NCBI RefSeq assembly: GCF_902652985.1
Contig: NC_047022.1
Coordinates: forward strand, 30,659,465-30,723,464
Length of the DNA: 64,000 nt
Reading direction: 5' to 3'
Source: Pecten maximus
Taxonomy: Eukaryota
Position 1 is the first letter of the stretch; each line of letters opens with the position of its first letter. The notes below the pieces were generated by a model. The model searched no databases and had not been told where the DNA came from. It worked only from the letters and a program-made list of their open reading frames with translations. Below, piece by piece: positions 2,459-45,048 of the stretch. A program made the translations under genes and the position numbers.

Positions 2459-3667
2459 TAACAAGAGGCGAATAGGGCCTGAATCACTCACCTGGATACA
2501 TGTAATTCAGTAATTATTGCAAAATAATTTAATTCAAGTTATACCAGGTATTTTAAATATTTTCCTACTTTTGAACTGCCTCTCCCAACAATGGTTCAAA
2601 CCACAGGTGCACAAAATCCTGTTATTCTTGAAAAAGAAACATTTTTATTATTTTCTTTGCCATATTTCCCCTATAAGGCCCCCTTTGTCCCACCGTAAGA
2701 GGGCCATATCCTTCGTTTATACAACAACAGATCTCATTTGGATAATTATTCTCCAAACCATATTTCATCAACATCCATTCAAGTATTCAGGACTAGTAGG
2801 GATTTAAAGGATTTACCTCAATTTCCCCTAATGGGCCCAGCCCTTCCGGCCCCAGGGGAGCCACACCCTCTGTTTATACAATGCTTAATCTCCTTTGCCC
2901 AATAACAACCCAGCCCAAATTTCATCAAAATCCATTCAAGTTCAAGTTTTTTATTAACTTTCAGGTGTTCAGGACTAGTAGCAGTTTAAAGGATTTACCT
3001 CAGTTTCCCCTCTTGGGCCCCGCCCCTCCAGCCCAGGTAAGCCAAATTCTCAGTTTAATCAAAATGTGAACTACAAGGTTGTAGTCACTTGTAGAATTGT
3101 TGTGTATGGTGTAAGAGAGGAAGACGGAGTCCAAGTCGTTGTATCTTGGTTTATTTACGTGTGTAGAACTGCTCAGTCCAGTCCTTGGAAACCGACTACA
3201 TAATATAGTAACATCTAACCTTTTATAGTCCTAAGTCCTAGGTATGAGTATACATGTATATGATTGATTGATTGATACATGATAATATGGAAGACGGCTG
3301 TCATATAGCCTAAGACAATATTAGATAACCATGTACAACATGTACCATTAATATCAGATCAACTACGTCAACAGGTAAACAGAATTGGTGCCAAAGGGCA
3401 AATGTGTTATATAAAAATACAGATCTAGGAATAAAATCTGATATATATTTTTAACTAAATTTTAAAATAATTTATTATATTTCATTCGTCCCTTTGTCAA
3501 AAATGATTTCAAATTAGATATAATTTCGACATCATATAAGTACGTTTGATCTCCTTTGCCCAATAATGCTCCAGCCCAAATTTCATCAAAATCTGTTCAG
3601 GACTAGTAGGGATTTAAAGAAATGTTGACGGACAACAGATGCTGTGCCATAGCATAATGGCAAAAAG
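2459..3667 (+). mobile_element. HINE/pearl-like non-autonomous element, subfamily A (head-array-tail)
   Basis: The head is aacaagaggcgaatagggcctgaatcactcacctgg. Internal units resemble ..gatttacctcaatttcccctaatgggcccagccc.. (2700-3060, 3540-3600). The tail gatttaaagaaatgttgacggacaacag..tgccatagcataatggcaaaaag has the same array-tail junction as the element ending at 25077. Bases 3060-3540 look like an internal insertion. Confidence 0.5.
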
Positions 3668-6600
3668 TTGACGCTGGAAGGACAGACGCCGTTCCACTGG
3701 CAGGGGAGCTAATAGTCAATTCGAAAACAGCCTTACCTGTAATTGATGGTGCAGTCCAAACTTTTAAAGATGTTGTCATATCCACAGTGTCTCCAGTCTT
3801 CTCATTTCCATCATATACTGATGTTTCTTGTAAGTCCTTCGCTTCATCAGTTTTCTTTTTTGTCATTTTTTCCTTGTCTGATTTGACTTTCTCATTAGTA
3901 GTTGCCCATTTCTTCCTTTCTTCATTATGCTTAATCCATTTTTTACTTTTACTTCCATGTTCTTCGTTTACTTTTTTCTTTCTTTCATCCTTGTCTTTAC
4001 TGCTGTCCATAGTATCCTTATTTTTTCTACTAGTTCTGACATGTTCACTGTATCTAGGCTTACTTTTATGGCATGTCCAATCTTTTGTCCCTCTTCTGTC
4101 TATTTCGATCTTTTCCTCTTGTTCTTCATTTCTATCATTTCTAAATCTGTCTTTACTATCATGACTTCTTCCCCTGTACCTTCTCTGCATATCTTGACTT
4201 GGACTTCTGCTGAAACTCCTCTGTCTATCCCGTCTCGTACTTCTTCTAAAACTCCTCTGTCTATCCCGTCTCATACTTCTGCTGAAACTCCTTCGTCTAC
4301 TTCGACTCATACTTCTGCTGAAACTCCTTCGTCTACTTCGACTCCTACTTCTTCTGAAATTCATCGGTCTATCCCGACTCAAACTTCCGCTGAAACTCCT
4401 CTGTCTATCCCGACTCCTACTTCTGCTAAAACTCCTTCGTCTACTTTGACTCAAACTTCTGCTGATACTCCTTCGTCTTCGTCGACTTCTACTTCTGCTG
4501 GAACTCCTTCGTCTTTGTCGACTTCTACTTCTGCTGGAACTCCTTCGTCTTTGTCGACTTCTACTTCTGCTGGAACTTCTTCGTCTTTGTTGACTTCTAT
4601 TTCTGCTGGAACTTCTTCGTGTTCTTTGCTTCAACCTTTGATTGGATTGTTTGTGGCTACCAATGTCAATATGCATACATATTGCTGATTCTGTGTCAAG
4701 ATTATCTAATTTTCTGTATGAAAACAAATCACCTGTAAAACCACAATGGGAAATACGGTCACCCATGCGACCCCCACCAAGACTACCTCTCCCACCCACA
4801 TCGGAACCACCTCTCCCATCCACACCGAGACCACCTCTCCCACCCACACCGGGACCGCCTCTCCCACCCACACCGGGGCCGCCTCTCCCACCCACACCGG
4901 GGCCGCCGCTCCCACCCACACCGGGACCGCCTCTCCCACCCACACCGGAGCCACCTCTCCCAACCACACCGGGGCCACCTCTCCCACCCACACCGGGGCC
5001 ACCTCTCCCACCCACACCGGGACCACCTCTTCCACCCCAGCCACGACCACACCTCTCTCCGACCCACACCGGGGCCACCTCTCCCACCCACACCGGGGCC
5101 ACCTCTCCCACCCACACCGGGGCCACCTCTCCCACCCACATCGGAACCACCTCTCCCACCCACACCGGGACCATCTCTCCCACCCACACCGGGACCACCT
5201 CTTCCACCCCAGCCATGACCACCTCTCCCACCCACACCAGGACCATCCCTAAAACCACCGCCGTAACCGCCCCTATCACCTCTAAAACCTCTACCTTGAC
5301 CATCTCTGCCAACACTACCTTCCCTAAAACTTTGACGAATGGAACTTCTTGAACCACAATTATACTCGTAATTTCCACTACCTCTACTGCCAAAACTTTC
5401 ATTTTGAGAAATAACTACACCACCAAAACCACCTCCAAAATACTGGGTAGTTTCTTCTGATTCAGTTGGCACTGTCTGGAGAGTATTCAAAGCTGCTGGT
5501 TTTGCAACAAATCCATATTCTTGCAATTTGGTAAGTGCACTGCTTGGTGTTGAAACACCTTGATAAGTTGAAGCTGCTTGCTTTGAAACTCCAGAGTTTA
5601 AACCTAGTGATGGTAAAGTGTTTAGTTCTGTTTGCATTGGAGCACCAAAGCAACTTGGAATACTACTCGGAGCTGCTAATGTTGTCAACCCAAAGCCAAA
5701 CCCCTGTGCTGGCACATCGCGTAGTGCAGCATGCAATGGACCTCCAAATGCAGATGTTTGATTTACAGTTAACCCAGAGCCCAAATCTTGTGTTGGTACA
5801 TTGTTTGTTGCTCTTTGAAGTGAAGTGTAAAATGAGAATGATGGACTTGGTAAACTGCTAGAAGTCGCTAGTTCTGAAGCGCCAAACAAGCCTAACCCTT
5901 GTCTTGGTACATCACTATGGGCTGTTTGAAGTGAAGCACCAAATGAAAATCCTTGATTCTGTAAACTGCTAGAAACGGCAGGTTTTGAAGCCGCAAAAGA
6001 GCCAAAACCATTTGTTGGGACATTGTTTGGGGTTGTTTGAAGAGAAGATTGTTGCCTTATCAAACTACTAGAAGCTGCTGTTTTTGAAGCCCCAAAAGAG
6101 CCAAAACCACCATGTGTTGGTACATCATTTTGTGTTGTTTGAAGTGAAGCACCAAATGAAGTCCCAAAATCAAACCCCTGTGTTGGTACATCTTTCAGTT
6201 TTGTTTGCGGTGATGCACCAAATTTTTGACAGACAGCAGCTCCAGATTTTGTTCTCCTCTTCCCTTGTTGGTAAGGAGGAGAGGTAGGCGTATAAAATGG
6301 ACTTGCTGGCTGATAAACAGCAGCAGTAGGTTTGTACATTGGGCTGCTTGGTGAATAGGATGGGCTGGTTGGTGAATAGGATGGGCTGGTTGGTGAATAT
6401 GATGGGCTGGTTGGTGAATATTTTGGAGATGTTGTTGTATATTCTAGTGACATTGGTGATAAGGCTGGGGTGGCTGGTGAATAATGGGGGTCCAGTGATG
6501 ATAAAAAATTGTCGGATAATTTAGAAGTTAGATCATAATCTAAATCAATTTCAATGTCTTCATCCACTATTTGGGAGGCTGTCCTTTTTCTGCTTGCATC

Positions 6601-7676
6601 TGTAGTTTTCCATACATTTTTATTACAATCCCCCGTGTTCAAAAGTTCAGTGGTTGAGTCTACCATCAATTGTTCCTCCTGCTCCTCTGCCTCCTCCTGC
6701 TCCTCCTCCTCAACCTGCTCCTGCTCCTCATCCTCCTCCGCCGCCTCCTCCTCCTGCTCCTCCTCCTCCTCCTCCTCTGCCTCCTCCTCCTCCTCCTCAT
6801 CCGCCTCATATATAATTCTTTTAGCACCACCTTTACCTAGCCCTTTCCCAGATTTCCTTGGTGCTCCCATTTTTGTGGATGACCTAATATCAGCAACAAC
6901 AGCAGATTTCCTTTCAAATTCTTCTTCAAATTCATCACAGGAACTGTCCTCCTCACTTTCATCAGTTTCAATGTGCTCTTTAGCAGGTACAGAAGAACGT
7001 CTGGCAGCTTTGGTTGCAATCTGTTTTCTTGGAATAAATGAAGATTCCCTTTCTGATGTTTCTTCAAATTCATCACAGGAACTGTCCTCCTCACTTTCAT
7101 CAGTTTCACTGTGCTCTTCAGCAGGTACAGAAGAACGTGGATTTCTGGTTAAAACATGTTCTCTTGAAACAGACAAATGCCTTTGTAGCTGACCAAGTTG
7201 TTTTTGTTGCTGTTGTTCCCATTGCAGAGGTTGCTGTTGTTGTTGCTGTTGTTGCTGCTGCTCCTGTTGAAGTTGTAATCGCTGAAGTTGTTGTTGCTGT
7301 TTTTCCCATTGCAGCGGTTGCTGTTGCTGTTGTTGTTGTTGCTGTTGCTCCTGTTGAAGTTGTAGTCGATGAAGTTGTTGTTGTTGATGTTGTTCCCATT
7401 GCAGCAGTTGTTGTTGCTGCTGCTGTTGTTGTTTTTGTTGTTGCTGCTGTTGTTGTTTTGTTGTTGCTGCTGTTGTTGTTGTTGAAGTTGTTGTTGATTA
7501 AGTTGTTGTTGTTCCCATTGCAGCGGTTGCTGTTGCTGTTGCTGCTGCTGTGGAAATTGCTCTTGTTCATATTGATGCAGTTTTGGCTTTAGAATTTGTC
7601 CTGGCTTAGCAATGCCCTGAAAAATATAGATTTTGATAACTTCTGGAGAAGACACATTTGATATGTTCTTTGACAT
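3603..7676 (-). CDS. Large low-complexity mosaic protein (polyQ, histone-tail-like peptides plus acidic tracts, CTD heptads, FG repeats, GGRGGPGV repeats, RS domain, KE-rich tail). Two frame slips inside repeats make it ~1300 aa if repaired.
   Basis: Three overlapping track ORFs on the minus strand (7676-7149, 7176-4783, 5402-3603) form one continuous open region. Repeat periods are multiples of 3 (24-nt octapeptide, 21-nt heptad), which supports protein coding. Frame 0 stays open upstream of 7176 (..[27 protein letters not shown]..). The slips lie at ~7480 (CAG/CAA run) and ~5035 (+4 nt in one octapeptide unit). The stop at 3603 lies in a HINE tail. Confidence 0.55.
4750..5400 (-). repeat. 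Coding 24-nt tandem array encoding about 27 copies of GGRGGPGV (RGG-type), with a frame slip near 5035
   Basis: The plus-strand unit is ctcccacccacaccggggccgcct. One variant unit at 5021-5070 carries +4 nt relative to its paralog at 5196-5240, and this shifts the frame between the 797-aa and 599-aa track ORFs. Confidence 0.6.
6271..6441 (-). other. RNA polymerase II CTD-type heptads (YSPTSPS x3 plus [28 protein letters not shown] variants)
   Basis: Residues ~246-302 of the 797-aa ORF. The 21-nt repeat is visible at 6340-6420 on the plus strand as ggtgaatag(g/t)atgggctg(g/c)ttg. Confidence 0.6.
6817..6882 (-). other. H3(9-17)-like STKMGAPRK fused to an H4(6-17)-identical [12 protein letters not shown] peptide, then RIIYEA and poly-E
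   Basis: Residues 99-123 of the 797-aa [14 protein letters not shown] matches the histone H4 N-terminal tail at 11 of 11 positions. Confidence 0.6.
6982..7032 (-). other. Histone H3 tail-like peptide [17 protein letters not shown] (cf. H3 16-31 PRKQLATKAARKSAPA; K27 position is R)
   Basis: Translation of the 797-aa ORF, residues 49-65. A shorter copy ([10 protein letters not shown]) lies ~35 aa upstream, in a 120-bp tandem duplication that also encodes [12 protein letters not shown]. Confidence 0.6.
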
Positions 7677-7937
7677 AGGAAATAGCTTAAATGATCCTAT
7701 ATCATGTCACAAATAAAATACAAATGAAATTACACAGATTTTAAGACATTATATTGAACTGATAGGGCTGCCAATGCTGGAGGTCCCTCGTAGGGATTGT
7801 TCAGAGTGGGAGATTAAGCTCTACATCATTTTATAAATGAATATTAAATTGTTTCTGTGCACTGGTTTTTATCACATTATTCCATCAAATTGTTTCATCA
7901 CTTAAATTTAACATAATTTAGATCTACCTGATTATCA

Positions 7938-8370
7938 AAGAAGAGGCCCATGGACCTAAACAGTCATCTGACTCTAAAGACCCTTGTACTATTGTAGTAT
8001 ACATACTCAGTAGCAAGTACAGTGGCACTGTTAGCCATGGTGGCCATCTTGGACTTTGGGACCAACCCGAAAAATAACAACACTTGGTCAGGACTATCTC
8101 AAGATCATTTCAGGTAAGTTAGAGCTGAATCCCACTTGTGAAACTTGAGAAGAAGTTTGAAATAGGAGTTGTTTAGGAAGACCATGATTGCACAATCATG
8201 TTACAAAATGGCCGTCGTGTCTGCCATGTCAAAGTTTTTACGATGCTGAAAAATAACAACACTGTGTTTGCTTCCCTTCCTTAACATCCTCACCAATTTG
8301 GCACAAAATGGCACCAGTGGAACTGGAGAAAAAGTTTAAAATGTGTTTTCAAGATAGCTGCCATCTAATA
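7938..8370 (+). mobile_element. HINE-like element fragment, subfamily B (head plus ~2 units, no tail)
   Basis: The head is aagaagaggcccatggacctaaacagtcatctgactc. The ~190-bp units match the array at 18600-19930. Confidence 0.5.
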
Positions 8371-8586
8371 ATGTAATAGTGCTATGACATATTCATGACA
8401 TGGCCCTATCATATGACATGGCAGAATGGGCCAGTTATGTAATAACATGGAATAAATTATTATAAATTACAGAGTTATAATCATACTTATTGACACTGCA
8501 AGGTGAATTAAGTATGGCTATTCAGAAATGGGTTTAGACACAATAGAATACACCCAGGTGTTGGCATTATGCCCTATTAGAAATGA

Positions 8587-8690
8587 TCATGTTACCTTGT
8601 AAGGAATCGTAGACGATTTCAGGGTTTGTATTGTAGAAGGTACTCCGCCTCGCAGACGCATTACCAGGAAGATAGGATTATTCTGCAGAT
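8587..8690 (-). CDS. Ubiquitin-like domain, C-terminal exon (..[16 protein letters not shown], then VPSTIQTLKSSTIPYKVT-stop)
   Basis: The acceptor is ttttttccgcag|ATCTGCAG. It is in phase with exon 12418-12236 (G + AT = D). The peptide matches the ubiquitin C-terminus ..STLHLVLRLRGG. The 3' end is uncertain: there is an alternative donor AAG|gtaaca at ~8596. Confidence 0.6.
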
Positions 8691-9570
8691 CTGCGGAAAA
8701 AATATTATTCAGATGATAACCACACGTCACTGAGATACCGATGTAATAACCTATACAATTACATTCTTCCTGCTTAATTTTTTTTAATCTTTTATTTTTT
8801 GTTTTTTTTTTTAATTTTAAAGACATTTATGTAATTTATCACAAATTAATATAATCTTTTACCCTGGTTTGTGTGAGTCATGGAATCTAAAGTTATCCTA
8901 TATGAGGATTGCTGAGTATTGCAGCATAAGAATTTGTCCTGGGGGTAGAGATCTCCCCTACCTCACTCCAAAGGAAGTGTAAGATTAATAAACACTTGAA
9001 ATTCAAGTTGGCTGCATCCATAATCAATTATTAGGATTCATTACATATTCGCCTGTTTGTTCAAATCCTAGAAATTTAATGCATTTTCAGCTACTGTCAA
9101 ATTAACCTTCTTCCCTTTAAATACACAGTAACTGCAAAATGCCTATCCCGCTTATAATTTGTAAATGAAATGTTTCTTTATAATGCATTTCAAATCAAAT
9201 ATGAAGGCTGTGGAATTTGTTTGATGGAAAACATGGAGAATTGTCAATATACTGATGATTATAAAAAATTACTATTAATTATTGAATCAGTTGATGTTAA
9301 TCAATTATTTAACTAATTATATCCCAATATTCAAATACGTTCCACATTATGGATGTTACCGTACTTTGGGATATTTTGGATGTTGTTGTATTTTGGTTTA
9401 TTTGGCGCCTGGGGTGAATGAGCCAAAATTAAACACACCAAAATTTCACAAAAAAAAATTGTCAAAACAATATCCGGATTATAGCAACCGTCTTTCCGTT
9501 CATTAACTACATACCCATTACTAGCTTCCGCGACCTGTGTTGATGTGTGTTGGAATATTGTTTTTTGATA

Positions 9571-10510
9571 ACAATAGGTCCAGAGAGCCTGTATCGCTCA
9601 CCTGGTTTCGCATGAAACAAGAATGATGCTTAAGAATATTTGTCGCTAGTAATGCTATGTCAATATCATAAGCATCTCATATGGGTACAATCACATGTAC
9701 ATTGGTTTTATTGTAATTCTAAAAATGTGAGGTTTTTATGCCAAAAGGTGCATTAATCCATGAAATGAAATCGACTTTTGGCGCAACCCCATATAGATGC
9801 TACCATACAAATGTGAGTGATATCCATTGCTTAGTTTTAGAAAAGAAGTTGTTTAAACCAATTGACTCCTTTTGACCCTGCCCTCTGCCCCTGGGGGTCA
9901 GCTCCTTCCTTTATACAATTTTGAATCCCTACCCCAAAAGGATGCTACCTGTCAAATATGTGAGATATCCATTGCTTAGTAGCAAAGAAGAAGTCATTTA
10001 TATCAATTCTGCCAAAATGACCCCTTTTGGCCCCACCCCTCAGCCCCCAGGGGGTCATCCCTGTCATTTGTACAATTTTGAATCCCTACTCGAAGGGGAT
10101 GCTACCAGTCAAATATGAGAGATATTGATTGCTTAGTTTCAAAGAAGAAGTCATTTATATCAATTCTGCCAAATTGACCCCTTTTGGCCCCACCCCTCAG
10201 CCCCCAGGGGGTCATCCCTGTCATTTGTATAATTTTGAATCCCTACTCCAAGGGGATGCTCACTATCAAATATGAGCAATATCCATTGCTTGGTTTCAGA
10301 GGAGAAGTTATTTAATATATCAATTTAGCCAAATTGACCCCTTTTGGCCCAGCCCCTCAGACCCCCGGGGGGTCAGCCCAACCATTTGTACAATTTGAGT
10401 CCCCATCCCACAGGGATGCTTCTGACCAAATTTGGTCAAATTCTGATCTGTGGTTATGAAGAAGAAGACAATTGTTGATGGACGGACGGCCGACCAGGTG
10501 AGCTAAAAAC
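9571..10510 (+). mobile_element. HINE/pearl-like element, subfamily A
   Basis: The head is ..ggtccagagagcctgtatcgctcacctgg. The body is ~4.5 units of ~150 bp (..ttgaccccttttggccccacccctcagcccccagggggtca..). The tail is gttgatggacggacggccgaccaggtgagctaaaaacg. Confidence 0.6.
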
Positions 10511-11319
10511 GCGTCAATAAAGGTATGTTTTCATCTAAATGTGTCATAAAATTCATTCACATTGTTTTCATATTGATTGTTTTATTAGCTGTGTTCAAGG
10601 ACAAGTCGCATCTTGATCGATCGATTCACTTGTGTACAAAGGGAAGACTGTTTTCCTGTGCAACCAGGTGAGACGAAATACAAAAGACTTTCATAGCGTA
10701 ATGAACAAACATATCAATTACATAACTACTGGTAAGTGCCCAAATTTAACACACCGATATTTAACCACCCTATTTTGAGCAAAAAACGCCAAAATATCCC
10801 AAAGTACAGTAGTAGTGAATCACCAACAGAACCAGGATAGAATCCAATGTACTTAATATATAATCCTCCTGGACCCAGTTTTATCAACGTTCCTTATCTT
10901 ACAAATGTAACCCTTTCATCCCTAGTGACCATATTGGACTTCAAATTATGAATGAGTGGCACAGTCCATTAAGTTTCTTAGGGTTGAAAGGGTTAAGGAA
11001 ATCCCTGAACTTGAAATTTTCCATAAGAAAGCATTATTGGAATAAGGAAGAATCTTAATAGTTAAAGGGTCTTTACTTAAACGCTGCAATGCTTTCCAAT
11101 GGGAAATTTCCTTAAGTTAAGGAATAATGATGAAACTAGACTGTAGAGGTCTGGTACTCTGTAATAATGCTATAATTAATTATGGCTTGAATAAATTAGA
11201 CTCCAGATTTGTTAAATGAACTAGATTACTGAAATGTCAGCGAGGGGCCCGCAATGTGCCATTTTCTATACCTGAACTTAACCAAAGTCATACACTGACA
11301 TAGAATTATTACTTATATG

Positions 11320-12110
11320 CTGCAAATATACAAATTACACTATGACCTTGACCTTAACATTAGCAACTTTTTAAATTCCTATTGCACATCTGTATATCAA
11401 AGAGCATTACCATGCATGTGATATCTGGAATATTTTGCATTGTTTAAGGATTTTGTATGATGTACTTGAAAGCACATTCCTGTTATATTTTCAGTAACAG
11501 TGACCTTGACCTTGACCTTAAGGACATTTTAAACCAATAATGTGCATCAGCATTTCCTAGCGTATTATCATGTTGAGTTTGAACTTCTGTATAGGGCCTT
11601 AGATGATAATTTTTGACAACATATTTTGGGTTGTGGTTTAAGTTACATTTAGCTTAGGTTTTTAAACCCCTTTTGCACGTCAGTATAACACCAAGATTAC
11701 ATTTCAATGAAAAACAGCACAAAAAAACATTTAAGTCGAATGTCTGGATGGCCAGTCAGACTAACAGATTACTGGCAAACCTGAAGTACCCTAACCCTAT
11801 CCCTCTGACATAGAAGCCAACAAAACACATAATAACTAATACACTTTTGACAGTAGAATATGGAGCTAAAACCTGTGAACACTTGACTGCTAGCTAAAAT
11901 AAGTGTGACATTGACATTAATTTTCAAAGCTGAAAAGCAATTGCAAGCAAGCACTTTTAAATTAAGAAAGAAGCATTGGATGAAGTATCAGTTTGATTGG
12001 CAAAAGCAAACTCAAGTTATTGCATGGAAACTGATTCTCTACATTTAGCAACAGTGACCTTGACCTTTGACACAGAAAAGCAAGCCCAAGCAAGCACTTT
12101 CAATAAGAAA
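11320..12110. repeat. ~190-bp dispersed/tandem repeat x3 containing (tgacct)n-like cagtgaccttgaccttgacc motifs
   Basis: Related units lie at 11330-11520, 11520-11700 and 11950-12100. The motif also occurs at 34305. Confidence 0.4.
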
Positions 12111-12235
12111 GCACTGTATGAAGTTTGAGTTCTATTGCCCCAAGGAAGCTTTTCCACCGAAATAAAAAGTGCTGACTGACAGACACAGTGATTACTATAG
12201 GACACCTGCACTTGTAGAGAGAAATATAAATTTAC

Positions 12236-12418
12236 CAAGATCTGATACAGTAACCTCATTCTTCAATGGAAAGCGGTCATGAATCAACCTCTGTTGGTCT
12301 TGGACAATTCCTTCTATCTTGTAGATTTTGTCCTTTAAATCAGCCACAGTATCCGTACTAGACACCGTCACACAAACAGTCTTACCAGTAAGTGTTTTTA
12401 CTTCGATTGTCGACAAGA
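12236..12418 (-). CDS. Ubiquitin-like domain, N-terminal exon ([60 protein letters not shown])
   Basis: The peptide has the beta-grasp ubiquitin pattern (cf. [58 protein letters not shown]). The acceptor is tttttctcattccag|TC and the donor is G|gtaaat (phase 1). Confidence 0.7.
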
Positions 12419-12902
12419 CTGGAATGAGAAAAACAGATTTTTTATGAGAATTGCTTAAATATAAAAGGACATCACTTCGGTTACATATACATCCGAGTAC
12501 CATTATATAATAGATGTTTGACAATTTTATTGGATTGGATTTCAAAAGTGGCTCCAAAATATCAATCAATAGAGTGCAGCATACAAACTAGGTATACAAT
12601 ATAAATTTTACCAATCTCTTTCAATCAGAATATATCATATGTTGAACAATATCTTCAAAAAAATGGATTTGACTTTGCATATTCAAAAGTATTTTTTTTG
12701 TTACATAATGCCACCTCATTTGAATGTTATACATTATTGTTTCAAGGTTTTTTTATTACTTTTATTACACACAGCAGACCCTAATTATATTTCTTTTTTT
12801 TTCACCTGGCTGATTGAATATCTGTCAAAAAAATGAGAAACAAATTTTGAAAATCCATGCTACAGCCACCTAATTTCTTATTGTTTCAGTAAAAAAACTT
12901 AC

Positions 12903-12990
12903 TAGGGAAACTTTTACGGAACTCTGTCAACACATTTTGGCTGATATCATCCTTGGAATAGGTGAAGAATTTTTCGACTGCTTCCATGAC
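12903..12990 (-). CDS. Linker exon VMEAVEKFFTYSKDDISQNVLTEFRKSFP, in phase between the last PARP4-like exon and the ubiquitin-like exons
   Basis: The acceptor is tgtttttgaag|GTC and the donor is A|gtaagt (phase 1). Joining to 12418 gives A + TC = Ile. Confidence 0.4.
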
Positions 12991-13439
12991 CTTCAAAAAC
13001 ATAAAACATTGACATCAGAAGTATATAATGCCAATAGTTTTTTTGGACAATTTTATAGTCATCCATGTATGTCTAGGGCTACCAACGTAAAAACACACAG
13101 CTAGATATGGAAACAACAGGTTCACAATGTACCATTATAATCTTTGCTGGTACCCAAACAATGGAAAAATGATAGTAACAAAAAAAAAATCCCCCAAAAA
13201 ACAATAACCAAAAATATTAGAGTATGCAGTATTCATGGGAAACATTCTCATTGAAAATTATATACCAATGTTATCAAAATCTTCTATTTGAATTTCACTG
13301 CTCAAGCTTCATGGTCACACCTGCTTCATTGAAAGAAAATACAATCACATTACTTTTAGTAATACTTATCAAATATATGGTCACATTGCTTCAGCTATTT
13401 AGGAATAGTAGAACTTTAATTAAGATATCTTTAACACTA

Positions 13440-13720
13440 CATTGCTGAGCTCTGAAACTCAAATTTGATCGCCTCCTGTCATCAGATTTTTCGGAAGTTG
13501 CTGCGCTGTAATCATAGTTCTTACATCATAAATCTACTCTCCAAGACTCAAATTTGGTCGCCTCTTGTCGTCATATTTTTCGGAAGTTGCAGCGCTGTAA
13601 TCATAGTTCTTACATCATAAATCTACTCTTCATGACTCAAATTTGTTCGCCTCCTCTAGCCGACAATATTTTTGATATTACATCACCGAGATCCGAGACT
13701 CAAATTTGGTCGCCTCCCAT
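13440..13720. repeat. ~100-bp tandem repeat x ~2.7 (..ctcaaatttg(a/g)tcgcctc(c/t)tg..cggaagttgc(t/a)gcgctgtaatcatagttcttacatcataaatctactct..)
   Basis: Direct repeats are visible in the sequence. Confidence 0.6.
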
Positions 13721-14444
13721 TGTGAGAGTTTTTGGAGGTTACTTAGTTATATCATTTAGGAATGAAATGTCTGTTAACACTTCAGCATCTTCATGCTCGT
13801 GAATCAAAACCTTTTTTTACATAGCATTCCATTATAGAAAATGGTTCTGTATACATGTTAAGCTAGCATCTGCCTTTGGCCTCAGGAAAGCCGAAGGGTT
13901 CATGGTTGTTTTTTCAACTACCATATTGATTACTCTTGCTGTATCTTACTGTATTTTCTAGTACTGTTTATATATCATGTGATTGTGTTTGTGCTCAATG
14001 TGTCTTGATGAAGGTGTGGATTGCCTCGAAAATTTGACATCTAGCCTTCATTGTCCATACTGCTGGAATTACTTCTCTGTTCCATATTAACATTTCAAGT
14101 AATTCGTATCCTGCAGACATACATTTGTAATTCGTATCCTGCAGACATACATTTGTAAGGATCCAGTGTTATCTAGAAAATTACTGACTATATTACATGT
14201 ACTTCTTTGACCCATATATTTATTTATATAATTATATATACATATACATATAGTCTCAGCATGAATGCATTCACATCATTTACATCTTAAGCTTGCTACT
14301 ACAATATTAAAACACTTTTACATTAGACCAGTCTCATTCACAAAACAAAGCATATTCTTGCATCACATACATTATACAAAACATACACGTGCAAAACTAA
14401 GCACACACACCCTCACACACAAGATTTAGGTCTAGGTACGTCAC

Positions 14445-14591
14445 CTTTTCCCTGAGGTCGTAGTTGGTATCAGTCTGAAGGCATGGTTTGTAATCTAAGA
14501 TAGACACATAGGCTCTGTTAGCTTCCAGTTGTGAAAAATTCTCTGCAATCAAGGCTTTCCTCAACAGCTCTTCCACAATTTCCACTGGTTC
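14445..14591 (-). CDS. PARP4: PARP4-like exon 28 (EPVEIVEELLRKALIAENFSQLEANRAYVSILDYKPCLQTDTNYDLREK)
   Basis: A 49-codon open exon with acceptor ctag| and donor AAG|gtgacg, in phase 0 with exon 27. The peptide lies in the region of human PARP4 beyond VWA and has no strong motif. Confidence 0.5.
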
Positions 14592-15139
14592 CTAGATCAT
14601 CATCAAGTAGAAAAAAACAGGATACCTAGCTGTGTCACACTCATATATGTTATCCTGCTAGACCACTATTTGTTAATACAAGGTCACCATAAATGTTAGT
14701 ACTGTACCAGCTATGAAAATATCAAAAGTAACCAAGAAAGAATGTAACAAATATTTCATGTTATGTATACTGTAAATCACTTATATTGCGCAAATATCTT
14801 ATTTCGCTAACTTCACTCTTCAGACATATTTGCGAAGATATGACTTACGATTGCTGACCTTGAAAAGTCTAGAAAAAATTGTGAATGATGAGCTATTGGA
14901 GTCATGAACTCAGTAAGACTCCTTCATTGGAAGTCAATCGCTTGGCTGCCATCCCAAGGTGTTGTTTTTGTATAAATAATCGTGAAACATTTGAATTCAC
15001 AATTAACTCTCCATGTGTATTAATACGAAAAATGAATCCCACATGAAATATCTGTTCAGTGAATCGCAGTATATATAAACAAGTGCAATCAATGATTGTG
15101 AAAGCTCACCGGCGGCAGCAATCACACTATGCATTCACT

Positions 15140-15678
15140 TTTATGTATGTATAAGCATGTCATTTTGAAATTGAACGTCACATAATATCGTTCCCAGACC
15201 TCTAATGGATGTATAAACCAAATAAGAAGGGTATGAACTTACAAGCTTTCCAAAACTTATCCCAAAAATATTTAAAGAGGGTTTTTGTGCCAAAAAAATA
15301 AGTCCACTAAATGGTAAAATGCCAAAAAAGATTGTATGATTTTGATATAACATCACTCCTGGACATCTAACGAATGCATAAACCAAATTAGAATGGTGTG
15401 AAAGCATAATTTTGGAATTACCCCAAAAACTTTAAAGTGGATTTTGGTACTAAAAAAGTTAAGTTCACAAAATGTAACGTAAAATGTAAAATGCGAAAAA
15501 ACCCAAAAAATGTTCTGCATGATTTTGCCATAATATTACTTCTAGACCTCTACTTTTGGACTTAGAAGCTTTCCAAAAACTGATCCCAAAAACTTTATAG
15601 TTTTGGGGTGGGACGCCAACGCGGACGCCGGGGTGACAGCATTACCTCTTGGTTACTTGTAACCGGTGAGCTAAAAAT
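15140..15678 (+). mobile_element. HINE-like element (2.5 units of ~150 bp plus tail)
   Basis: The tail ..tttggggtgggacgccaacgcggacgccggggtgacag.. is followed by the hairpin ggttac-ttg-taacc and ggtgagctaaaaatg. Confidence 0.45.
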
Positions 15679-15879
15679 GAAATTGTTGTTAATTCTTTTT
15701 TTAGTTAATTTGATATTTTCATGTTTGGTGCAATACAAACATCATGGTAACCTTGTGTTAACCAATAGAAGACTAGCTGATAATTTAACACAACTTCTAT
15801 TTATCTTAGTTCCTCATCAATCAGGAAACCACTAATGCTGATACACAATAAACATTTAATGTAATTCAGACTTGGTCTA

Positions 15880-16320
15880 ACAATTCAATGGAATAAAATT
15901 GCGGACATGTTTGTAGACCTTTGTTATGATGTCAGCCATTTTGGAATGAACACGGAAGCACAACAATATCAAAACATCCGGTGACGAATGCGCCTGCACA
16001 ATCTTTGTTTACCTATATATAAGTTCAGGTTCATTTAATCTTCACATTTTGCTAGTGTTATGCATTTCTCAAATCGTATGCATGCATGTTGAAAACATCT
16101 ACTGAATATATTTCAACATTTTCAAGAAAACTACCTAAAACGAAGATATTTTTACAAGTAAATTATTTGAAGCATAAGGCCATGGCTGTATTTCATTAAA
16201 ACAGGAAGTATATGGCGTTTTGGAGAATGTGGTTACCAAATATGGTTATATTTCTCAGTCTAGTTCTGGATTGCAATAACTGAACATTATAATGTTTGTT
16301 TAAAATTGACAGAATACAAT
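15880..16320 (+). repeat. Dispersed repeat copy 1 (~85% identical to 39700-40145, same orientation)
   Basis: Shared blocks are ..gcggacat(g/a)tttg(t/c)agacc..tgtcagcc(a/g)ttttggaatgaacacggaag..catccgg(t/a)gacgaatgcgcctgc..ttatgcatttctcaaatcgtatgcat.. Confidence 0.6.
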
Positions 16321-16843
16321 GATAACTCAGGTAATTTCAAACTACAGTTAGTCACAGCAGTAATAGAATTTTTCACTCAATCAGTCCTTGGTTATATGCT
16401 AAAATTGTTTTATTTTTTTCCTGATTTTTCTCAACTTGTTCTTCTGCTGAAGTATTTGATCAGGTATTGAATCTTGAGAGTGTCAAATCCTCAACATCTG
16501 AGCTCAGTTGTTCAAAAGATGATTAGGCTAATAAGAATTTAACAATTTCAAAATCGTGATTAAATCATTTTTGGTAAAACTATCTTGACAAAATTTCATG
16601 CAACAATCACACTTATCAGTCTCTTCCGACCTGCCCATTTCAAGGAATATACCTACCAGGTACACAGATTTGGAAGTAAGCAGAAATGAGAATTTCACTA
16701 ATCAAGTGATTATTATTATTATAAGCTAATCACCTGTAGAACAGCTGTGCCTTGCTAATAACTGTAAAATGTATCCATTAAATTAATATTGTAGCATGCA
16801 ACATCAGACAACTAATAACACAGGGCAGTTCAGGCCAACTTAC

Positions 16844-16951
16844 CTTTTCATCAAAAACATCTGGGTTCTGCCACCCAACATAATCTAAAATGTCCACTGT
16901 TTCCTCAGCTACAAGTTCATCAATAGACGGACCCTCCATTACCTTTTCATT
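16844..16951 (-). CDS. PARP4: PARP4-like exon 27 (NEKVMEGPSIDELVAEETVDILDYVGWQNPDVFDEK)
   Basis: Matches human PARP4 ..SELIAKEDVDFLPYMSWQGEPQ... The donor is AAG|gtaagt; the acceptor choice is uncertain. Confidence 0.6.
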
Positions 16952-17228
16952 CTATTAAGAGTAAAATGGTAAGAAAACACAATTTATCACATTTTCTTTG
17001 ACAAAAATGTTTAACTAGAACATGTTTTAAGCATGGATGCTCCTTGTCCCATGCACAATGTCACTGATTTTTCATAAATAGTAACAGTGACCGTGTTTAA
17101 CAAACTCCTACAATATATTATCATTCTTGAGCAGTGTATAAACTTTAAGTTTGATTTAAATTCCTAAAGTAATTAAGTCACTAATAGTAATGAAATAAAT
17201 TACTTTATCAACCTTGACCTTGGAACCT

Positions 17229-17620
17229 TACAAGAGGCCCATAGGCCTGATCTGTCACCTGAGTTCACACTGATAGAAGATGTACGTTTTGCTTTTAAAG
17301 CAATTAAACACATCTCTCACCTAAAATAGTTCAAGATTTGTTTATCCTAGCATGCTAATTGATTATTAACATGGCCCGGTATCATGGCCCTGGGCCTCTT
17401 GGTTATTGAGAAGTCCTTTGAAGAAATTTTACACTTTTCATCCCCGTAACTTTTAAAGTAGGTCAGTCATTCATTTGAACAAATTTGGTAGACCTTCATC
17501 CTATCATGCTACAGGCCCACTGCAATAACCCTCTGTCTCTTGGTTATTGAGATGAAGATTTTAACATATTTGGACCCGGTAACCTTGAAAGTACTTCCTC
17601 CCAGCACGCTAACGGATAAC
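17229..17620 (+). repeat. Head motif (acaagaggcccataggcctgatctgtcacctgag) followed by ttattgagaag-type units, related to 2100-2440
   Basis: Sequence similarity to the other heads and to the 2100-2440 units. Confidence 0.4.
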
Positions 17621-17678
17621 TTTCAGTACTAAGATATGTGACTTTACAGGAGAATGGTATTCAAAACATAAAACAAAC

Positions 17679-17780
17679 CTGATCTCTTTCCTCAATGGCC
17701 ACAAAGCTAGTGTAGGGGGTTACTATGGAGTACTCTGTACTCAGCTGTATAATGGTATTCTTCCTTTCCTGTTTCAGCAC
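17679..17780 (-). CDS. PARP4: PARP4-like exon 26 (VLKQERKNTIIQLSTEYSIVTPYTSFVAIEERDQ)
   Basis: Matches human PARP4 ..LITQFTSFVAVEKRDE... The acceptor is ttttttag| and the donor CAG|gtttgt is weak. Confidence 0.65.
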
Positions 17781-18310
17781 CTAAAAAAATGATCACTAGC
17801 TTGGTCAAGTACAAATGTAAGCTCTAATTTGGATTGGTATTGTCATTGTACTGTCATTTCTCCCTTGAGTACTGTATTGGTAATCTGTAGTTTAAAAGTT
17901 TCCATACCACTTTCAGGAAAACTGTCAAGTGGTTGAAATTAAAGTCATGTTAATAGTGTACATGTATCTATATGCATGGTAGAAAATGGAATTTTCACAT
18001 CAAGTTTCGTAACTCTGTAGTTATCTTGAATGGTTGACTTAGGGAAAATATTAAAAATAAAATCTTACCAATATTAAAAGATGAACAGAGGATAGATGAC
18101 AGAGGTCACTCTATAACATAAGCTACCTGGTCATTTCAACCAGGTGAGCAAAGACTTCATGGAACTCTAATTGCCATGGTAATCATTTACATGAGTTAAA
18201 TTCAGAGGCATGCCTAAGAAACCACTTCTAAGTTCACAAAATATTGAAATTATATGAGACATATCATATAAGCATAATTAGGACAGTTAGAACAGTGTCC
18301 GATTACCTAC

Positions 18311-18391
18311 CCGTTGTTTGATCTTATCCTCACAGAGGATTCCATCCTCATAGTCACGTATCAAGGCACGAGCTGTCAGCTGATGCAGCAT
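18311..18391 (-). CDS. PARP4: PARP4-like exon 25 (MLHQLTARALIRDYEDGILCEDKIKQR)
   Basis: Near-identical to human PARP4 TMIHKLAARALIRDYEDGILHENE. The acceptor is ttgtttttag| and the donor is CGG|gtaggt. Confidence 0.8.
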
Positions 18392-18580
18392 CTAAAAACA
18401 ACAAATATCTAATCAGAAATCAGACTCATGTAATTCATAAGAGGCTATTTATATCTAAATAATATGCCAGGAGAGGACTTTAAAACCTTTGAAGCCAACC
18501 TACTTCTGAACAGTGTGATGATAGAAAGGGTCGATTAGAATATAGCTTGATCAAAAGTGTGTGATGAAAAATTAACACCA

Positions 18581-20016
18581 AACAAGAGGCCCAGGGGCCT
18601 TAACGGTCATCTGACTCTAAATCAAAGACCCTTATACTATTGTAGTATGCATTCTCTGTAGCAGGTTTAGTGGCACTGTTGGCCATGATGGCCATCTTGG
18701 ATTTCTGACTGACCCAATAAATAACAACACTTGGTCAGAACCATCTCAGGATCATTTCTGGCAAGTAAGAGCTGAATCCCACTGGTGGAATTTGAGAAGA
18801 AGTTTGAAATAGGTATTTTTCAGGAAAAACCTTGATTGCGCAATCGTGTTAAAAAAATGGCACCGTTGCTGCCATTTCAAAGTTTTACGAAGCCGAAAAA
18901 TAACAACACTTTGTTGACTCTCTTTCCTTAACATCCTTACCAATTTTCAGCTCAATCGCACCAGTGGAACTGGAGAAGAAGTTTAAATGTGTTTTTCAAG
19001 ATGGCTGCCATGGCGGCCATCTTGGATTTCTGACTGACCCGATAAATAACAACACTTGGCCAGGACCATCTCAGGATCATTTCTGGTAAGTTACAGCTGA
19101 ATCCCACTCGTGGAATTTGAGAAGAAGTTTGAAATGGGTGTTGTTCAGGAAAACCATGATTGTGCAATTATTTTACAAAATGGCCACCATGATATGGCTG
19201 CCATGTCAAAGTTTTTACGAGGCCGAAAAATAACAACACTTTGTTGCCTCTCCTTCCTTAACATCCTCACCAATTTCCAGCTCAATGGCACCAGTGGAAC
19301 TGGAGAAGAAGTTTAAAATGTGTAATTCAAGATGGTTGCCAATGGCGGCCATCTTAGATTTCTGACCGACTTGAAAAATAACAACACTTGGTCAGGACCA
19401 TCTCAGGATCATTTCTGGTAAGTAAGAGCTCAATCCCACTCGTGGAATTTGAGAAGAAGTTTTAAATAGGTGTTGTTTAGAAGAACCATGATTGCGCAAT
19501 CATTTTACCAAATTATTGCCGTGGCTAGAATGTCAAAGTTTTTACGAAGCCGAAAAATAACAACACTGTATTGGCTCTCCTTCCTTAACATCCTCACCAA
19601 TTTCCATCTCAATCGCACCAGTCGAACTGGAGAAGAAGTTTAAAATGTGTTTTTCAAGATGGTTGCCATGGCGGCCATCTTTGATTTCTGACCGACCTGA
19701 AAAATAACAACACTTCCTCAGGACCATCCCAGGATCATTTCAGGCAAGTTTCAGCTCAATCTCACCAGTGGAACTTGAGAAGAAGTTTCAAATGTGTTTT
19801 CAAAATGGCGGCCATCTTGGATGTCAAACTGACCCGAAAACACTTGGTCAGGACCATCCCAGCATCATTTCAGGCAAGTTTCAGCTCAATCCCACTGGTG
19901 GAACTTGAGAAGAAGTTTGAAATGTGAAAAGTTTACGCACGGCGGACGGCGCACGACGACGGACGAAACATGATGACTATAGGTCATCCTGACCCTTCGG
20001 GTCAGATGACCTAAAA
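18581..20016 (+). mobile_element. HINE/pearl-like element, subfamily B (~7 units of ~190 bp)
   Basis: The head is aacaagaggcccaggggccttaacggtcatctgactc. The tail gcacggcggacggcgcacgacgacggacg is followed by a near-perfect palindrome aggtcatcctgaccc-ttcg-ggtcagatgacct and ctaaaaagag. Confidence 0.65.
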
Positions 20017-20200
20017 AGAGAGATGCTTTCAGTGTATATTTGGCAATCTGGCTTTTGCATTAAGCTGTGGTAGACAGATATTATTAAGTGTTAATTTGAT
20101 TTAAAAAATAAAAATACTTTTTTTTTTGCTTTTTATCTTTTATTTGCAAACTGGATGGGATGATGCTAACAGAAATAAGTGTTGATATAATATTGCTTAC

Positions 20201-20281
20201 TTCCCCTTGTGTAATGTTAAGTTCTGTCGTTGCCACCATGGTAGAAATCTCCATGTTATCAACAGATGCCTTCAGATAAGC
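20201..20281 (-). CDS. PARP4: PARP4-like exon 24 (AYLKASVDNMEISTMVATTELNITQGE)
   Basis: The acceptor is attttacag| and the donor is GAA|gtaagc, in phase 0 with both neighbours. It corresponds to the human PARP4 ..EFRTMVSTTELQKTTG region. Confidence 0.55.
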
Positions 20282-20952
20282 CTGTAAAATAAATCTGTAT
20301 GACAATCTGGAGCAGTGGTACAAAGGGTTACTTCCAATAGATATCAATTTTGATAAGTAACTTAAGAAGATATACAATTGCTGCACAATATTAATATGGT
20401 CAAAGGGTCAAACTCAGTATTAAGACCACTTTTACTCAGTCCCCCAGGTGATTTAATAGAGAGGTTTTACTGTACTTTTAGTTTTATATGCAGAATAATG
20501 AAAATTGCAACCAGGTAAAGAGAAGTAACATTACTTTACAATGGACAGATAAAGCACAATATGGCATTATCTCAAATCTTCCCATCAATTTCTTTCAGTC
20601 TGAAGTGTCTCCATTGTTTTATTTAGCACATTTTTTTATAAACAGCTTCACTGTTTCGTTGTTCTGTATGTTGACAAAGCTTATTTCCCGTTATTAACCC
20701 TGTCACAGAGACACTTGACTAAGGTGTATCATCAGTGTTAAACAATCGTTCCGATGACCTAGATGAATAAGGTCGTCCAATGTTTGATTTTGAGAATGAA
20801 AAACTACATTTCTTGTTGCCTTTACCATGTAAACAGATAACTAAATGGTATTCAGGGTATATTGATATATCGACTAGCGTATCAATATATCAAATTGACC
20901 TATCATATTGCAATATACTGATTTTTCAATAATACTGCTCACCCCTACCACC

Positions 20953-21845
20953 CATGTCCACTACAGTTCAGTAATAAGCCCAATCTAATTAAAATTAGAT
21001 GCTCCTATGGGACTTCCTTAGATCTTGTATTGAAGTGTATCGTAGAGTATTAATGTAGAGGAGCGGAAATTACAAGTCTAATTTTAATTAGATTGGTAAT
21101 AAGCCCATTCATGTCCATAACGGTTCAGAAGTAAGCCTATCCATGTCCATTACAGTTCAGTAATAAGCCCATCCATGTCCACTACAGTTCAGTAATAAGC
21201 CTATCCATGTCCATTACAGTTCAGTAATAAGCTCAGGCCATCCATGTCCATTAGTTCAGTAATAAGCCCACCCGTGTCCACTACAGTTCAGTAATAAGCC
21301 CATCCATGTCCACTACAGTTCAGTAATAAGCCTATACATGTCCACTACAGTTCAGTAATAAGCCCCATGGCCATTACAGTTCGGTAATAAGCTTATCCAT
21401 GTCAATTACAGTTCAGTAATAAGCCTATCCATGTCAATTACAGTACAGTAATAAGCCTATCCATGTCAATTACAGTTCAGTAATAAGCTCAGGCCATTCA
21501 TGTCCACTACAGTTCAGTGATAAGCCCATGGCCATTCATGTCCACTACAGTTCAGTAATAAGCCCATCAATGTCCACTACAGTTCAGTAATAAGCCCATC
21601 CATGTCCATTACAGTTCAGTAATAAGCCCATCCATGTCCATTAGTTCAGTAATAAGCCTATCCATGTCCACTACAGTTCAGTAATGAGTCCATCCATGTC
21701 CACTACAGTTCAGTAATAAGCCCACCCATGTCCACTACAGTTCAGTGATAAGCCCATGGCCATTCATGTCCATTAGTTCAGTAATGAACCCATCGATGTC
21801 CACTACAGTTCAGTAATAAACCCATCGATGTCTATTACAGTTCAT
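20953..21845. repeat. 32-bp tandem array (catgtccactacagttcagtaataagcccatc, ~25 copies), interrupted at 20983-21098 by a ~115-bp palindromic insertion
   Basis: The array is visible by direct repetition. The insertion is flanked by aatctaattaaaattagat / atctaattttaattagatt inverted repeats. Confidence 0.7.
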
Positions 21846-22078
21846 CAGAAATGCCACTTCATGTTTTTTTTATTGTCTTGGGATAATTAAGCCCATCCAC
21901 CTACTTTGAGACTGAGTTTATGAGTTGGCCTCCTGACCATATTGCAAATAACCATTATGATGGTACATGGATTTCTGTAGCAATATTTCAGATCTATTTC
22001 ACTTGGTCTTTTTATGAAGTCAAACACAACTCAACTCAATAGCAATGAAGAGCTAAATGCTTATTCAATAATTCTCAC

Positions 22079-22249
22079 CTGTGTACAGTTGGGTACAAAT
22101 CCGTATACAACCAGTCGTGACCCTGAAAACAGACTAGGAATGTGGTTTGGTGCCTGGAGAGGAGAGTCAGGTGTATCATTGTGTTGCTGCCACTCAACCT
22201 TTACACCTGAGATACCTGGACAACATGCCTTCTGAATCTGTGAGTTAAT
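22079..22249 (-). CDS. PARP4: PARP4-like exon 23 (INSQIQKACCPGISGVKVEWQQHNDTPDSPLQAPNHIPSLFSGSRLVVYGFVPNCTQ)
   Basis: Matches human PARP4 ..SVKWQQLNPDVPEALQAPAQVPSLFLNDRLLVYGFIPHCTQ. The acceptor is cttttcag| and the donor is CAG|gtgaga. Confidence 0.8.
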
Positions 22250-22964
22250 CTGAAAAGTAGGGGAAAATATTATAACTATTGACCTCTATACACTTCCGAG
22301 ATCTCAGAAACAACAACATGTAATTACATGCCAGCAGCCATCACTTTCAGTGTTATTACAAGCTCCAAATTCGATACCAGAAATACTGAGATGTAGAATA
22401 CAAAGACAATTTTAACAATCATGGGGATACCATGTATTATTATATATGTAGTACCTAGCTAATTATATTACTAGGACCAATCAAATTATTCATTTTTATT
22501 GTATTAATTAATTAAATTAACACAAATATTTTAAGATATTTCCTGTGTAAACCATCTTCACTGAGAAAACCCTCCAAACTTTGTCAATGTTAGCACCATT
22601 ACTCCTTTAATATCATGCCTATTTCTGTCTCCCTTATTGCCAGAAGATCTCTAACAATCATTTTTCCTTACTTAATATGAACAATGCTTTTCTCTCATAC
22701 ATTTGTATGCTGTAGGGATGAGATCAAATTAGAGTAAAATAGTCTGAAATTACACTTATGTTGTATCTGAACTTTTACAGTAAGCTTTGAAACACATATA
22801 TAGGAATTCAGTGTTTTAGCTGAAAATCCTCATGCCTGATGTTGCCAAGCCCGCACCAACTCCTGCTTGAAAAATGGCAGTAGTATAATGAGGTTTTAAT
22901 GGTGTTCATAAAACTTTAAAACACAGGCTGAAAACTCATACCACGAGGTATCTCTTATACTCAC

Positions 22965-25077: not shown

Positions 25078-25102
25078 GTAAAAAAAACAACATAATATTT
25101 AC

Positions 25103-44983: not shown

Positions 44984-45048
44984 CTGGAAACAAAAACACA
45001 ATCCAATTTTTTGAAAAGATAGAAAAAGGTGTTGTCACTGATTTAACA

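Follow-up and report, generated by a model that had tools for sequence, protein, structure and literature searches.

A Pecten maximus PARP4-like gene with an internal ubiquitin-like domain and a candidate splice into a low-complexity open reading frame

Human PARP4 has BRCT, PARP regulatory and catalytic, VIT and vWA domains, and its structured ITIH-like region is linked to the MVP-interacting domain by a disordered segment; the residues reported under positive selection in primates, 1504-1521, fall within this segment (PMC10450202). The human protein has no ubiquitin-like (Ubl) domain, and in it the disordered segment runs into the helical MVP-interacting domain (1570-1724). PARP surveys name ubiquitin-related domains only for Acanthamoeba clade-5 PARPs and none for animals (PMC4245714; PMC2964712), and clade-5 PARPs have been reported with appended C-terminal domains (actin, 14-3-3) (PMC4245714). 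Here we analyze a 64,000-nt stretch of Pecten maximus DNA (contig NC_047022.1; hereafter the window), the minus strand of which holds a PARP4-like gene ending in a Ubl and, close behind it, a low-complexity mosaic open reading frame (ORF) that a first-pass annotation had suggested joining to the gene as a single transcription unit. Tentatively, and with slightly less than an even chance in our estimate, we read the last exon of the gene as composite, such that a short isoform would end at TGA 8587 while a long isoform would be spliced from 8596 to 7616 into the mosaic.

The exons of the gene were mapped by tblastn with the PARP4-like proteins of Solemya, Mytilus, Batillaria and Pomacea, together with minus-strand stop-to-stop fragments, and splice pairs were picked by phase continuity, which gave 29 introns. 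The resulting model (57863..8587) has 30 exons and a coding sequence of 4,062 nt for 1,353 aa, spans 49 kb with a mean intron of 1.6 kb, and shows agreement of phase at 29 of 29 introns, no internal stop, and no frameshift in its 4 kb of coding exons. The window is AT-rich, intron-rich animal DNA whose closest protein relatives are molluscan, and the nearest database protein for the model is a Solemya velum PARP4-like protein at 60% identity. The Pfam domains follow the same order as in human PARP4, with a ubiquitin domain at the end: BRCT (PF00533) at model residues 3-83 with 35.1 bits (cutoff 21.3), PARP_reg with 24.7 bits, a PARP catalytic domain (PF00644) in mid-protein with 94.5 bits, and then an ITIH-like region consisting of VIT (PF08487, 113.8 bits) and vWA (PF13768, 78.8 bits). 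A predicted H-Y-E triad can be read as LMHASS / GIYFSD / NEFVVY. Since the 29 intron phases are consistent, no internal stop occurs, and all PARP4 Pfam domains plus ubiquitin are present, this is a coherent PARP4-like (vault PARP, clade 5) gene that owns the Ubl, which bears out the first-pass annotation on this point. The gene and its last two exons are as follows.

8587..57863, minus strand: PARP4-like gene (BRCT, PARP_reg, PARP catalytic, VIT, vWA, post-vWA region, helical linker, Ubl)
12236..12418, minus strand: Ubl exon 1, which contains ILSTIEVKTLTGKTVCVTV, runs to VSDL and ends in phase 1
8587..8690, minus strand: Ubl exon 2, DLQNNPIFLVMRLRGG plus the tail VPSTIQTLKSSTIPYK (VT, stop), with the stop TGA at 8589-8587

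The region behind the vWA domain aligns to residues 1098-1213 of human PARP4 (E = 1e-29, PDB sequence search). The same search gave no match past residue 1213, and no MVP-interacting domain was detected in the window gene. Residue 1213 falls within the ITIH-like region or at its end and precedes the human disordered segment (PMC10450202), so that the analogy drawn earlier between a tail at this locus and the human disordered region holds. From this point on the two proteins differ: the window gene inserts a helical linker of ~80 aa and the Ubl, and its candidate tail of ~1,335 aa is unrelated, modular low-complexity sequence.

The Ubl scores 52.7-54.9 bits with Pfam PF00240 (cutoff 25.4) and aligns with the Ubls of seven relatives. 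Its identity to ubiquitin is about 45-50%, and a database query with it returned generic ubiquitins only, none of them above 51% identity. The two Ubl exons join in frame to the upstream exon 12990-12903, placing the domain C-terminal to an enzyme of ~1,260 aa, behind the linker, and the protein end reads ...RLRGGVPSTIQTLKSSTIPYKVT before the stop. When Ubl exon 2 is read through, RLRGG is followed by an 18-residue tail up to TGA 8587. As in UBA52, RPS27A and polyubiquitin, a ubiquitin fold ending in RLRGG thus runs directly into more polypeptide; in those proteins, however, ubiquitin is N-terminal and released, whereas the window Ubl is internal, behind the enzyme. The first-pass annotation had taken the Ubl to be cleavable by deubiquitinating enzymes (DUBs). 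The RLRGG is indeed there, followed by Val-Pro (GG-V-P), and Val at P1' is compatible with DUB cleavage. After the Ubl core, 6 of the 7 relatives read RLRGG-Pro, and the Batillaria model reads RLRA without GG. The GG-Pro bond was reportedly found to be cleaved poorly by Bachmair, Finley and Varshavsky in 1986. Because six relatives have this bond and the seventh has no GG, DUB cleavage after the Ubl is doubtful, and it is more probable that the Ubl stays on as a domain of the protein than that it marks a site of release.

Relatives of this architecture were gathered with a profile of the post-vWA region, which returned short transcript-like contigs and one genomic locus. The contigs probably come from rotifers, given their 64% identity to a PARP4-like fragment from Brachionus. 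A helical linker joins their PARP4-like C-terminal region to a ubiquitin-derived domain, which ends in (L)RLRGG, and the ORF goes on from there; it runs beyond the Ubl in every relative with known post-Ubl sequence (P0193, P0206, P0208, P0209, P0212, P0222 and P0091). Pro comes next in all six rotifer-like Ubls that keep RLRGG (P0193, P0206, P0208, P0209, P0212 and P0222), and the rotifer-like contigs continue for 10-150 residues past LRLRGG-Pro. At the genomic locus L002 (4280-4350), a 62-nt GT-AG intron separates the two Gly codons of GG, and a tail exon of 390 aa follows it; most of this exon is of low complexity, and it contains poly-Pro, an FG-like motif and acidic repeats of Cys/Phe before a helical end. 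In Batillaria attramentaria (KAG5699378.1, P0091) the Ubl is followed by RLRA-EEESDEEMGFCLFDSDDD, which we take to resemble the tail conserved at the C-terminus of the ribosomal stalk P proteins (...EESDDDMGFGLFD) and which would then be another conserved host tail copied onto a PARP4-like C-terminus. Three ENA genomic loci (L004-L006) have a PARP4-like exon and Ubl exon 1 with intron position and phase as in the window; Ubl exon 2 and beyond fall outside their 10-kb flank. In Solemya velum (L001, JBHNWI010000380.1) neither Ubl nor mosaic was seen within 10 kb downstream, an uninformative result.

The window gene shares linker, Ubl and further ORF with those relatives that carry C-terminal additions (P0193, P0206, P0209, P0212, P0222, L002 and Batillaria), and ubiquitin-related domains occur in the Acanthamoeba clade-5 PARPs too (PMC4245714). 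Because the rotifer-like sequences, L002 and Batillaria have a common layout, an internal Ubl with a variable tail is the rule in this sub-family, and L002 provides a precedent for a spliced tail exon. In contrast to the mosaic, the relatives' tails (10-390 aa) have no histone-like, CTD-like (C-terminal domain of RNA polymerase II), RGG or RS modules and no detectable homology to it. Two further observations were made among the database sequences. The annotated PARP4-like gene of Solemya velum L001 has a model that ends directly behind vWA, and the exon homologous to the post-vWA region (56042-56140) is on the other strand, which points to an inversion, to a second paralogue or to misassembly at this locus. 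The database PARP4-like proteins P0088, P0134 and P0138 have Pfam actin plus synaptobrevin (Saccostrea, partial) or 14-3-3 after VIT-vWA, and some of these additions may be gene-model fusions.

We then scored splice signals between the Ubl exon and the mosaic with a position weight matrix built from the gene's own 29 introns, the real donors being scored leave-one-out. The sites considered and the spacer between the two ORFs are as follows.

8590..8598, minus strand: candidate 5' splice site AAG/GTAACA, last exon base 8596, first intron base 8595, phase 0, 7.1 bits
7667..7686, minus strand: acceptor of the first-pass annotation, ctatttcctatgtcaaag/AAC, AG at 7669-7668, exon start 7667, 0.2 bits, not credible
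7616..7635, minus strand: better acceptor, TCAAAATCTATATTTTTCAG/GGC, exon start 7616, phase 0 in frame A of the mosaic, 9.3 bits
7617..8595, minus strand: candidate intron, or else 3' untranslated region (3'UTR) or intergenic spacer, without AATAAA/ATTAAA and with a repeat fragment at 7936-8364
7674..7676, minus strand: ATG opening the low-complexity ORF, poor context tttcctATGt, in-frame stop at 7709-7707, 10 codons upstream
3471..3476, minus strand: first AATAAA outside ORFs downstream of the Ubl stop, 127 nt beyond the mosaic stop

The donor noted earlier near 8596 is present. Its 7.1 bits compare with 8.3 +/- 2.5 for real donors and place it in the top 5% of the strand's GT sites; exonic decoys as strong number 9 per 3,927 nt, and a near-identical donor, AAG/GTGACA, is used by the PARP4-like gene itself at 47228. 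It sits 2 codons before the Ubl stop. Reading through past the real internal exons of the gene meets a stop after a median of 9 codons, and after no more than 2 codons in 4 of 29, and thus the Ubl exon resembles an internal exon in this respect. The acceptor proposed near 7670 did not survive scoring, as 46% of all AGs on the strand match or beat it, much as for a random AG. A far better one lies 51 nt further on, at 7616; it ranks in the top 0.8% among AGs, and the 64 kb contain only some 15 untrained AGs of such strength. It is in phase 0 with both donor 8596 and the first frame of the low-complexity ORF. Roughly and post hoc, the donor would arise by chance with odds of about 2%, and the in-phase acceptor with odds of about 0.8%. 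An in-phase splice from the Ubl exon into the low-complexity ORF is feasible by way of acceptor 7616, and the 8596/7616 splice and its usage are plausible. An extension of the alignment between the window and P0193 beyond GG across the hypothetical junction was discarded, being gapped and too short to mean anything.

The spacer was also said to contain only a truncated HINE fragment. One interspersed-repeat fragment (7936-8364) was confirmed in its 970 nt, and it is 83-85% identical to copies at 18579-19923, inside a PARP4-like intron; its family has a 332-nt unit, and the label 'HINE' could not be verified.

In our proposed scheme, the Ubl exon 8690-8587 would act as a composite last exon. 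Read-through to TGA 8587 would give the 1,353-aa BRCT-PARP-VIT-vWA-Ubl protein with its 18-residue tail. Alternatively, donor 8596 would be joined over a 979-nt, repeat-bearing intron to acceptor 7616, and the lineage-specific low-complexity ORF would be appended in phase 0 after ...TIPYK. The tail would lie past the end of the human PARP4 homology, on the same side as the human disordered linker. If the two indels in the mosaic are assembly errors, the long isoform would have ~2,690 aa with a disordered tail of ~1,335 aa, whose modules would copy H3 15-31-like and H4 tail-like sequences, Pol II CTD heptads, FG, RGG and RS. If they are real, the long isoform would end at 7149 with 155 extra residues.

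The mosaic is not one ORF, and its two indels (1-nt and 4-nt) had been overlooked. It is spread over three frames, 7676-~7455 (A), ~7450-~5068 (B) and ~5040-3603 (C), with the following features.

7455..7616, minus strand: frame A, start of the polyQ / PLQWEQQQ repeats; frame A stop at 7151-7149
7451..7454, minus strand: frameshift 1, an A4 run against A5 in the sister repeat copy; -1, frame A to frame B
5068..7450, minus strand: frame B, polyQ, acidic, H3-/H4-like, polyE, CTD-like, FG and start of RGG
to 7177, minus strand: polyQ repeats, frame B
7137-7060 and 6999-6922, minus strand: two acidic repeats, frame B
7035-6982, minus strand: H3(15-31)-like module, frame B
6870-6817, minus strand: H4-like module after the first Met of frame B
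6807-6670, minus strand: polyE, frame B
6483-6271, minus strand: Pol II CTD-like heptads, frame B
6222-5419, minus strand: FG repeats, frame B
5310 onward, minus strand: start of the RGG array, frame B
5040..5067, minus strand: frameshift 2, a 52-nt unit against a 48-nt sister at 5235; extra AG and GT, +4 nt, frame B to frame C
3603..5040, minus strand: frame C, rest of the VGGRGGPG array, RS array, K-rich end, stop at 3605-3603
5245-4770, minus strand: VGGRGGPG array, 24-nt period
4620-4203, minus strand: RS array, 36-nt period
4713..4752, minus strand: internal acceptors, exon starts 4732 (10.9 bits) and 4713 (9.6 bits), just past the RGG array
3731..3739, minus strand: strong donor CAG/GTAAGG, first intron base 3736, 11.4 bits, phase 1 in frame C

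The same PLQWEQQQ repeat is read in frame A and then in frame B, and VGGRGGPG in frame B and then in frame C. With both indels corrected, ~1,335 codons are open from 7616 with zero stops. As assembled, an mRNA spliced at 7616 would have 155 added residues, in which polyQ turns into poly-N, up to the stop at 7151-7149. Because frame A stops there, upstream of the histone-like, CTD-like, FG, RGG and RS modules, none of them is in the as-assembled product. The part read as histone-tail-mimicking in the first-pass annotation would thus be left untranslated, except if the indel at 7451-7454 is an assembly error; the joined transcription unit has phase-compatible splice signals and the family layout on its side, and a continuous frame only after correction. 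Both indels are in an A-run or dinucleotide runs within repeats, and assembly errors concentrate in homopolymer or dinucleotide runs inside repeats. The indels could therefore be assembly errors; real decay is possible too, since the 4 kb of PARP4-like exons have no frameshift.

The mosaic's four tandem arrays have periods of 36, 24, 3 and 87 nt, all divisible by 3, which is not the case for most of the window's arrays outside the mosaic. Only the mosaic's frame is open through the non-repetitive CTD/FG section, and the CTD module matches RPB1 with E = 1e-68 (best stretch 48.6 bits). These three properties indicate that the mosaic, with ORFs of 797 and 599 aa, is coding sequence or of very recent coding origin. 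In the histone-like segments, the H3 15-31-like stretch is ~13/17 identical and H4 residues 7-17 match 11/11. A PDB search with these segments returned mostly peptides or chains of H3 (15-31) and H4 (4-17), the top match being occludin (E = 0.04); E-values against PDB were 0.13-4, because the segments are short. Influenza NS1 ARSK is a histone mimic, and short H3-, H4- and YSPTSPS-like stretches occur here too in a non-histone, non-RPB1 ORF. To our knowledge, known histone mimics carry one motif, whereas the mosaic, as known from its sequence, strings several motif classes together in one host ORF.

Further splicing within and beyond the mosaic was also considered. Acceptors 4732 and 4713 are among the strongest acceptor-like sites of the whole window, and a donor AAG/GTAGAG at 5294 paired with acceptor 4732 would splice out all of the array with the 24-nt period, passing from frame B to frame C in frame; the RGG array might therefore be an alternatively removed 'exitron'. 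A bypass of frameshift 1 by splicing was rejected, as 7616-7455 has no donor of at least 5 bits and no in-phase acceptor follows, and a plus-strand reading of the mosaic gave only fragmentary ORFs. From donor 3736 the mosaic ORF may splice onward. Between 3600 and 1, past the mosaic, no exon candidates were seen, this region being repeats and a decayed Harbinger-like transposase, and a tblastn of the L002 C-terminal helical domain for an exon like the MVP-interacting domain downstream of the mosaic found nothing. The transposase is a Harbinger/PIF-like ORF with internal stops (...NGHKRLHAFKYQSVVTPNGLVANMFGPI, stop, ...) at ~300-1400 on the minus strand.

Several observations weigh against the composite last exon. 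The collections yielded no transcript or protein across the junction and contain neither this species nor a near relative, the best PARP4 match being at 60% and the Ubl having no near match. When the masked mosaic was searched exhaustively with HMMER against 1.84 billion representative proteins, no homologue emerged, only three marginal hits, all with E >= 5e-5. Comparison of the mosaic with the relatives' tails gave no significant similarity (best E = 0.3); that resemblance, to the L002 tail CLDFEETQSERES, is not collinear and was not counted as evidence. Two frameshifts break the mosaic, so that no continuous frame runs through the appended exon as assembled. The spacer has other fair donors at 7927 (9.0 bits) and 8293 (7.5 bits), which, as part of a separate first exon, could supply acceptor 7616. 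An end of the protein at TGA 8587 would be just as ordinary, because most relatives have a short tail of 10-150 aa. This last point, together with the lack of a mosaic homologue in any PARP4-like tail, favors an arrangement of two genes, which we nevertheless consider unlikely: the PARP4-like gene would end at TGA 8587 with a non-canonical poly(A) signal within a few hundred bases, and the mosaic would be an independent orphan gene with a promoter in the spacer and its start at ATG 7676. The variant hexamers AATAAG (8491) and AATAAT (8461) do follow the Ubl stop, and TATAAA occurs at 7835, although about one such motif per kb is expected by chance in sequence this AT-rich. A search of 8586-7617 between the two ORFs found neither AATAAA nor ATTAAA, which speaks against a gene end here, but with 1.65 expected in 970 nt the absence lacks significance (P = 0.18). 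ATG 7676, 10 codons behind an in-frame stop, is the earliest start that the ORF can use, as expected for an independent ORF; yet its context is poor (C at -3, T at +4), and it lies upstream of a top-1% acceptor. Within 0.9 kb, half of it repeat, a 3'UTR, a terminator and a promoter would be a tight fit given a 49-kb gene, while for the composite exon a same-strand gap of only 0.9 kb is favorable when set against the 1.6 kb mean intron.

It is also improbable, in our view, that the mosaic is decaying or was never functional, that is, a pseudogene or an expanding coding-derived repeat tract which, however transcribed, would yield no full-length protein, so that the PARP4-like protein would end at or near the Ubl. 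Two frameshifts in the 4 kb of the mosaic against 0 in 4 kb of PARP4-like exons would fit this, as would the lack of a homologue and the position of the mosaic stop (3605-3603) within an interspersed repeat (3546-3639). The repeat units are near-identical and therefore recently expanded, and the low-complexity composition leaves several frames open on both strands. Decay is harder to reconcile with ~1,335 corrected codons that are free of stops although ~120 of them are Gln codons one mutation away from a stop, with indels confined to error-prone runs, with array periods in multiples of 3 and with a CTD/FG section open in one frame only; moreover, frameshift 2 could be skipped in frame via donor 5294 and acceptor 4732. 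Quite unlikely, in our assessment, is a start of translation at ATG 6870, the first Met of frame B and the next one after ATG 7676 in the corrected frame, by which the H4-like sequence would come to stand at the N-terminus of the product as in real H4, with the polyQ/acidic part as leader. The context of this ATG is optimal (acaaaaATGG; A at -3, G at +4), the 11/11 match to H4 7-17 follows directly, and no correction of frameshift 1 would be needed because the ATG is downstream of it. On the other hand, ~190 codons upstream are open and built of repeats that continue those of frame A in phase, this start would leave out the H3-like module, a leader of at least 750 nt with upstream ATGs is unfavorable, and a promoter is not in evidence.

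The introns of the PARP4-like gene contain other repeats. Satellite arrays lie at 40227-43462 (38/77-nt unit, ~84 copies) and 50191-53650 (22-nt unit, ~157 copies), both with strong GC skew of +0.3 to +0.44 on the plus strand. Tandemly arrayed interspersed elements with units of ~155-160 and 332 nt recur in introns, many of them translating to '...KSKMAA...'; such elements are found at 18682-19793, 7936-8364, 23806-24985, 25557-26187, 55798-57163 and 9860-10467. In an AT-rich intron (28-31% GC), the region 36576-38309 has identical 84-aa ORFs at 37174-37428 and 37897-38151, which point to a tandem duplication of ~723 bp.

Of all PARPs, PARP4 is understood least, and the part of it under positive selection in primates is the disordered C-terminal region. 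Animal PARP4-like genes, namely the window gene, the Batillaria model and the rotifer-like sequences, carry an internal ubiquitin-derived domain and variable tails. As a speculation to which we assign a very low probability, invertebrate PARP4-like C-termini may carry copies of abundant conserved host segments as baits or substrates fused to an ADP-ribosyltransferase; examples may be ubiquitin, the P-stalk-like EEMGFCLFD in Batillaria, and, here, H3/H4 tails, CTD heptads, FG, RGG and RS. Such a tail could resemble the integrated decoys known from plant immune receptors, or an automodification platform acting in cis, and the idea would fit the host-virus arms-race signature in the human PARP4 disordered region. 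Should the splice not exist, what remains is a PARP4-like gene of the ordinary kind and, behind it, an orphan ORF of low complexity that is probably decaying. Should it exist and the frame be intact, a single enzyme would bear an exceptional tail of ~1,335 residues of histone-tail, CTD, FG, RGG and RS look-alikes, and the role of the PARP4 tail as bait, substrate or cargo would become directly testable.

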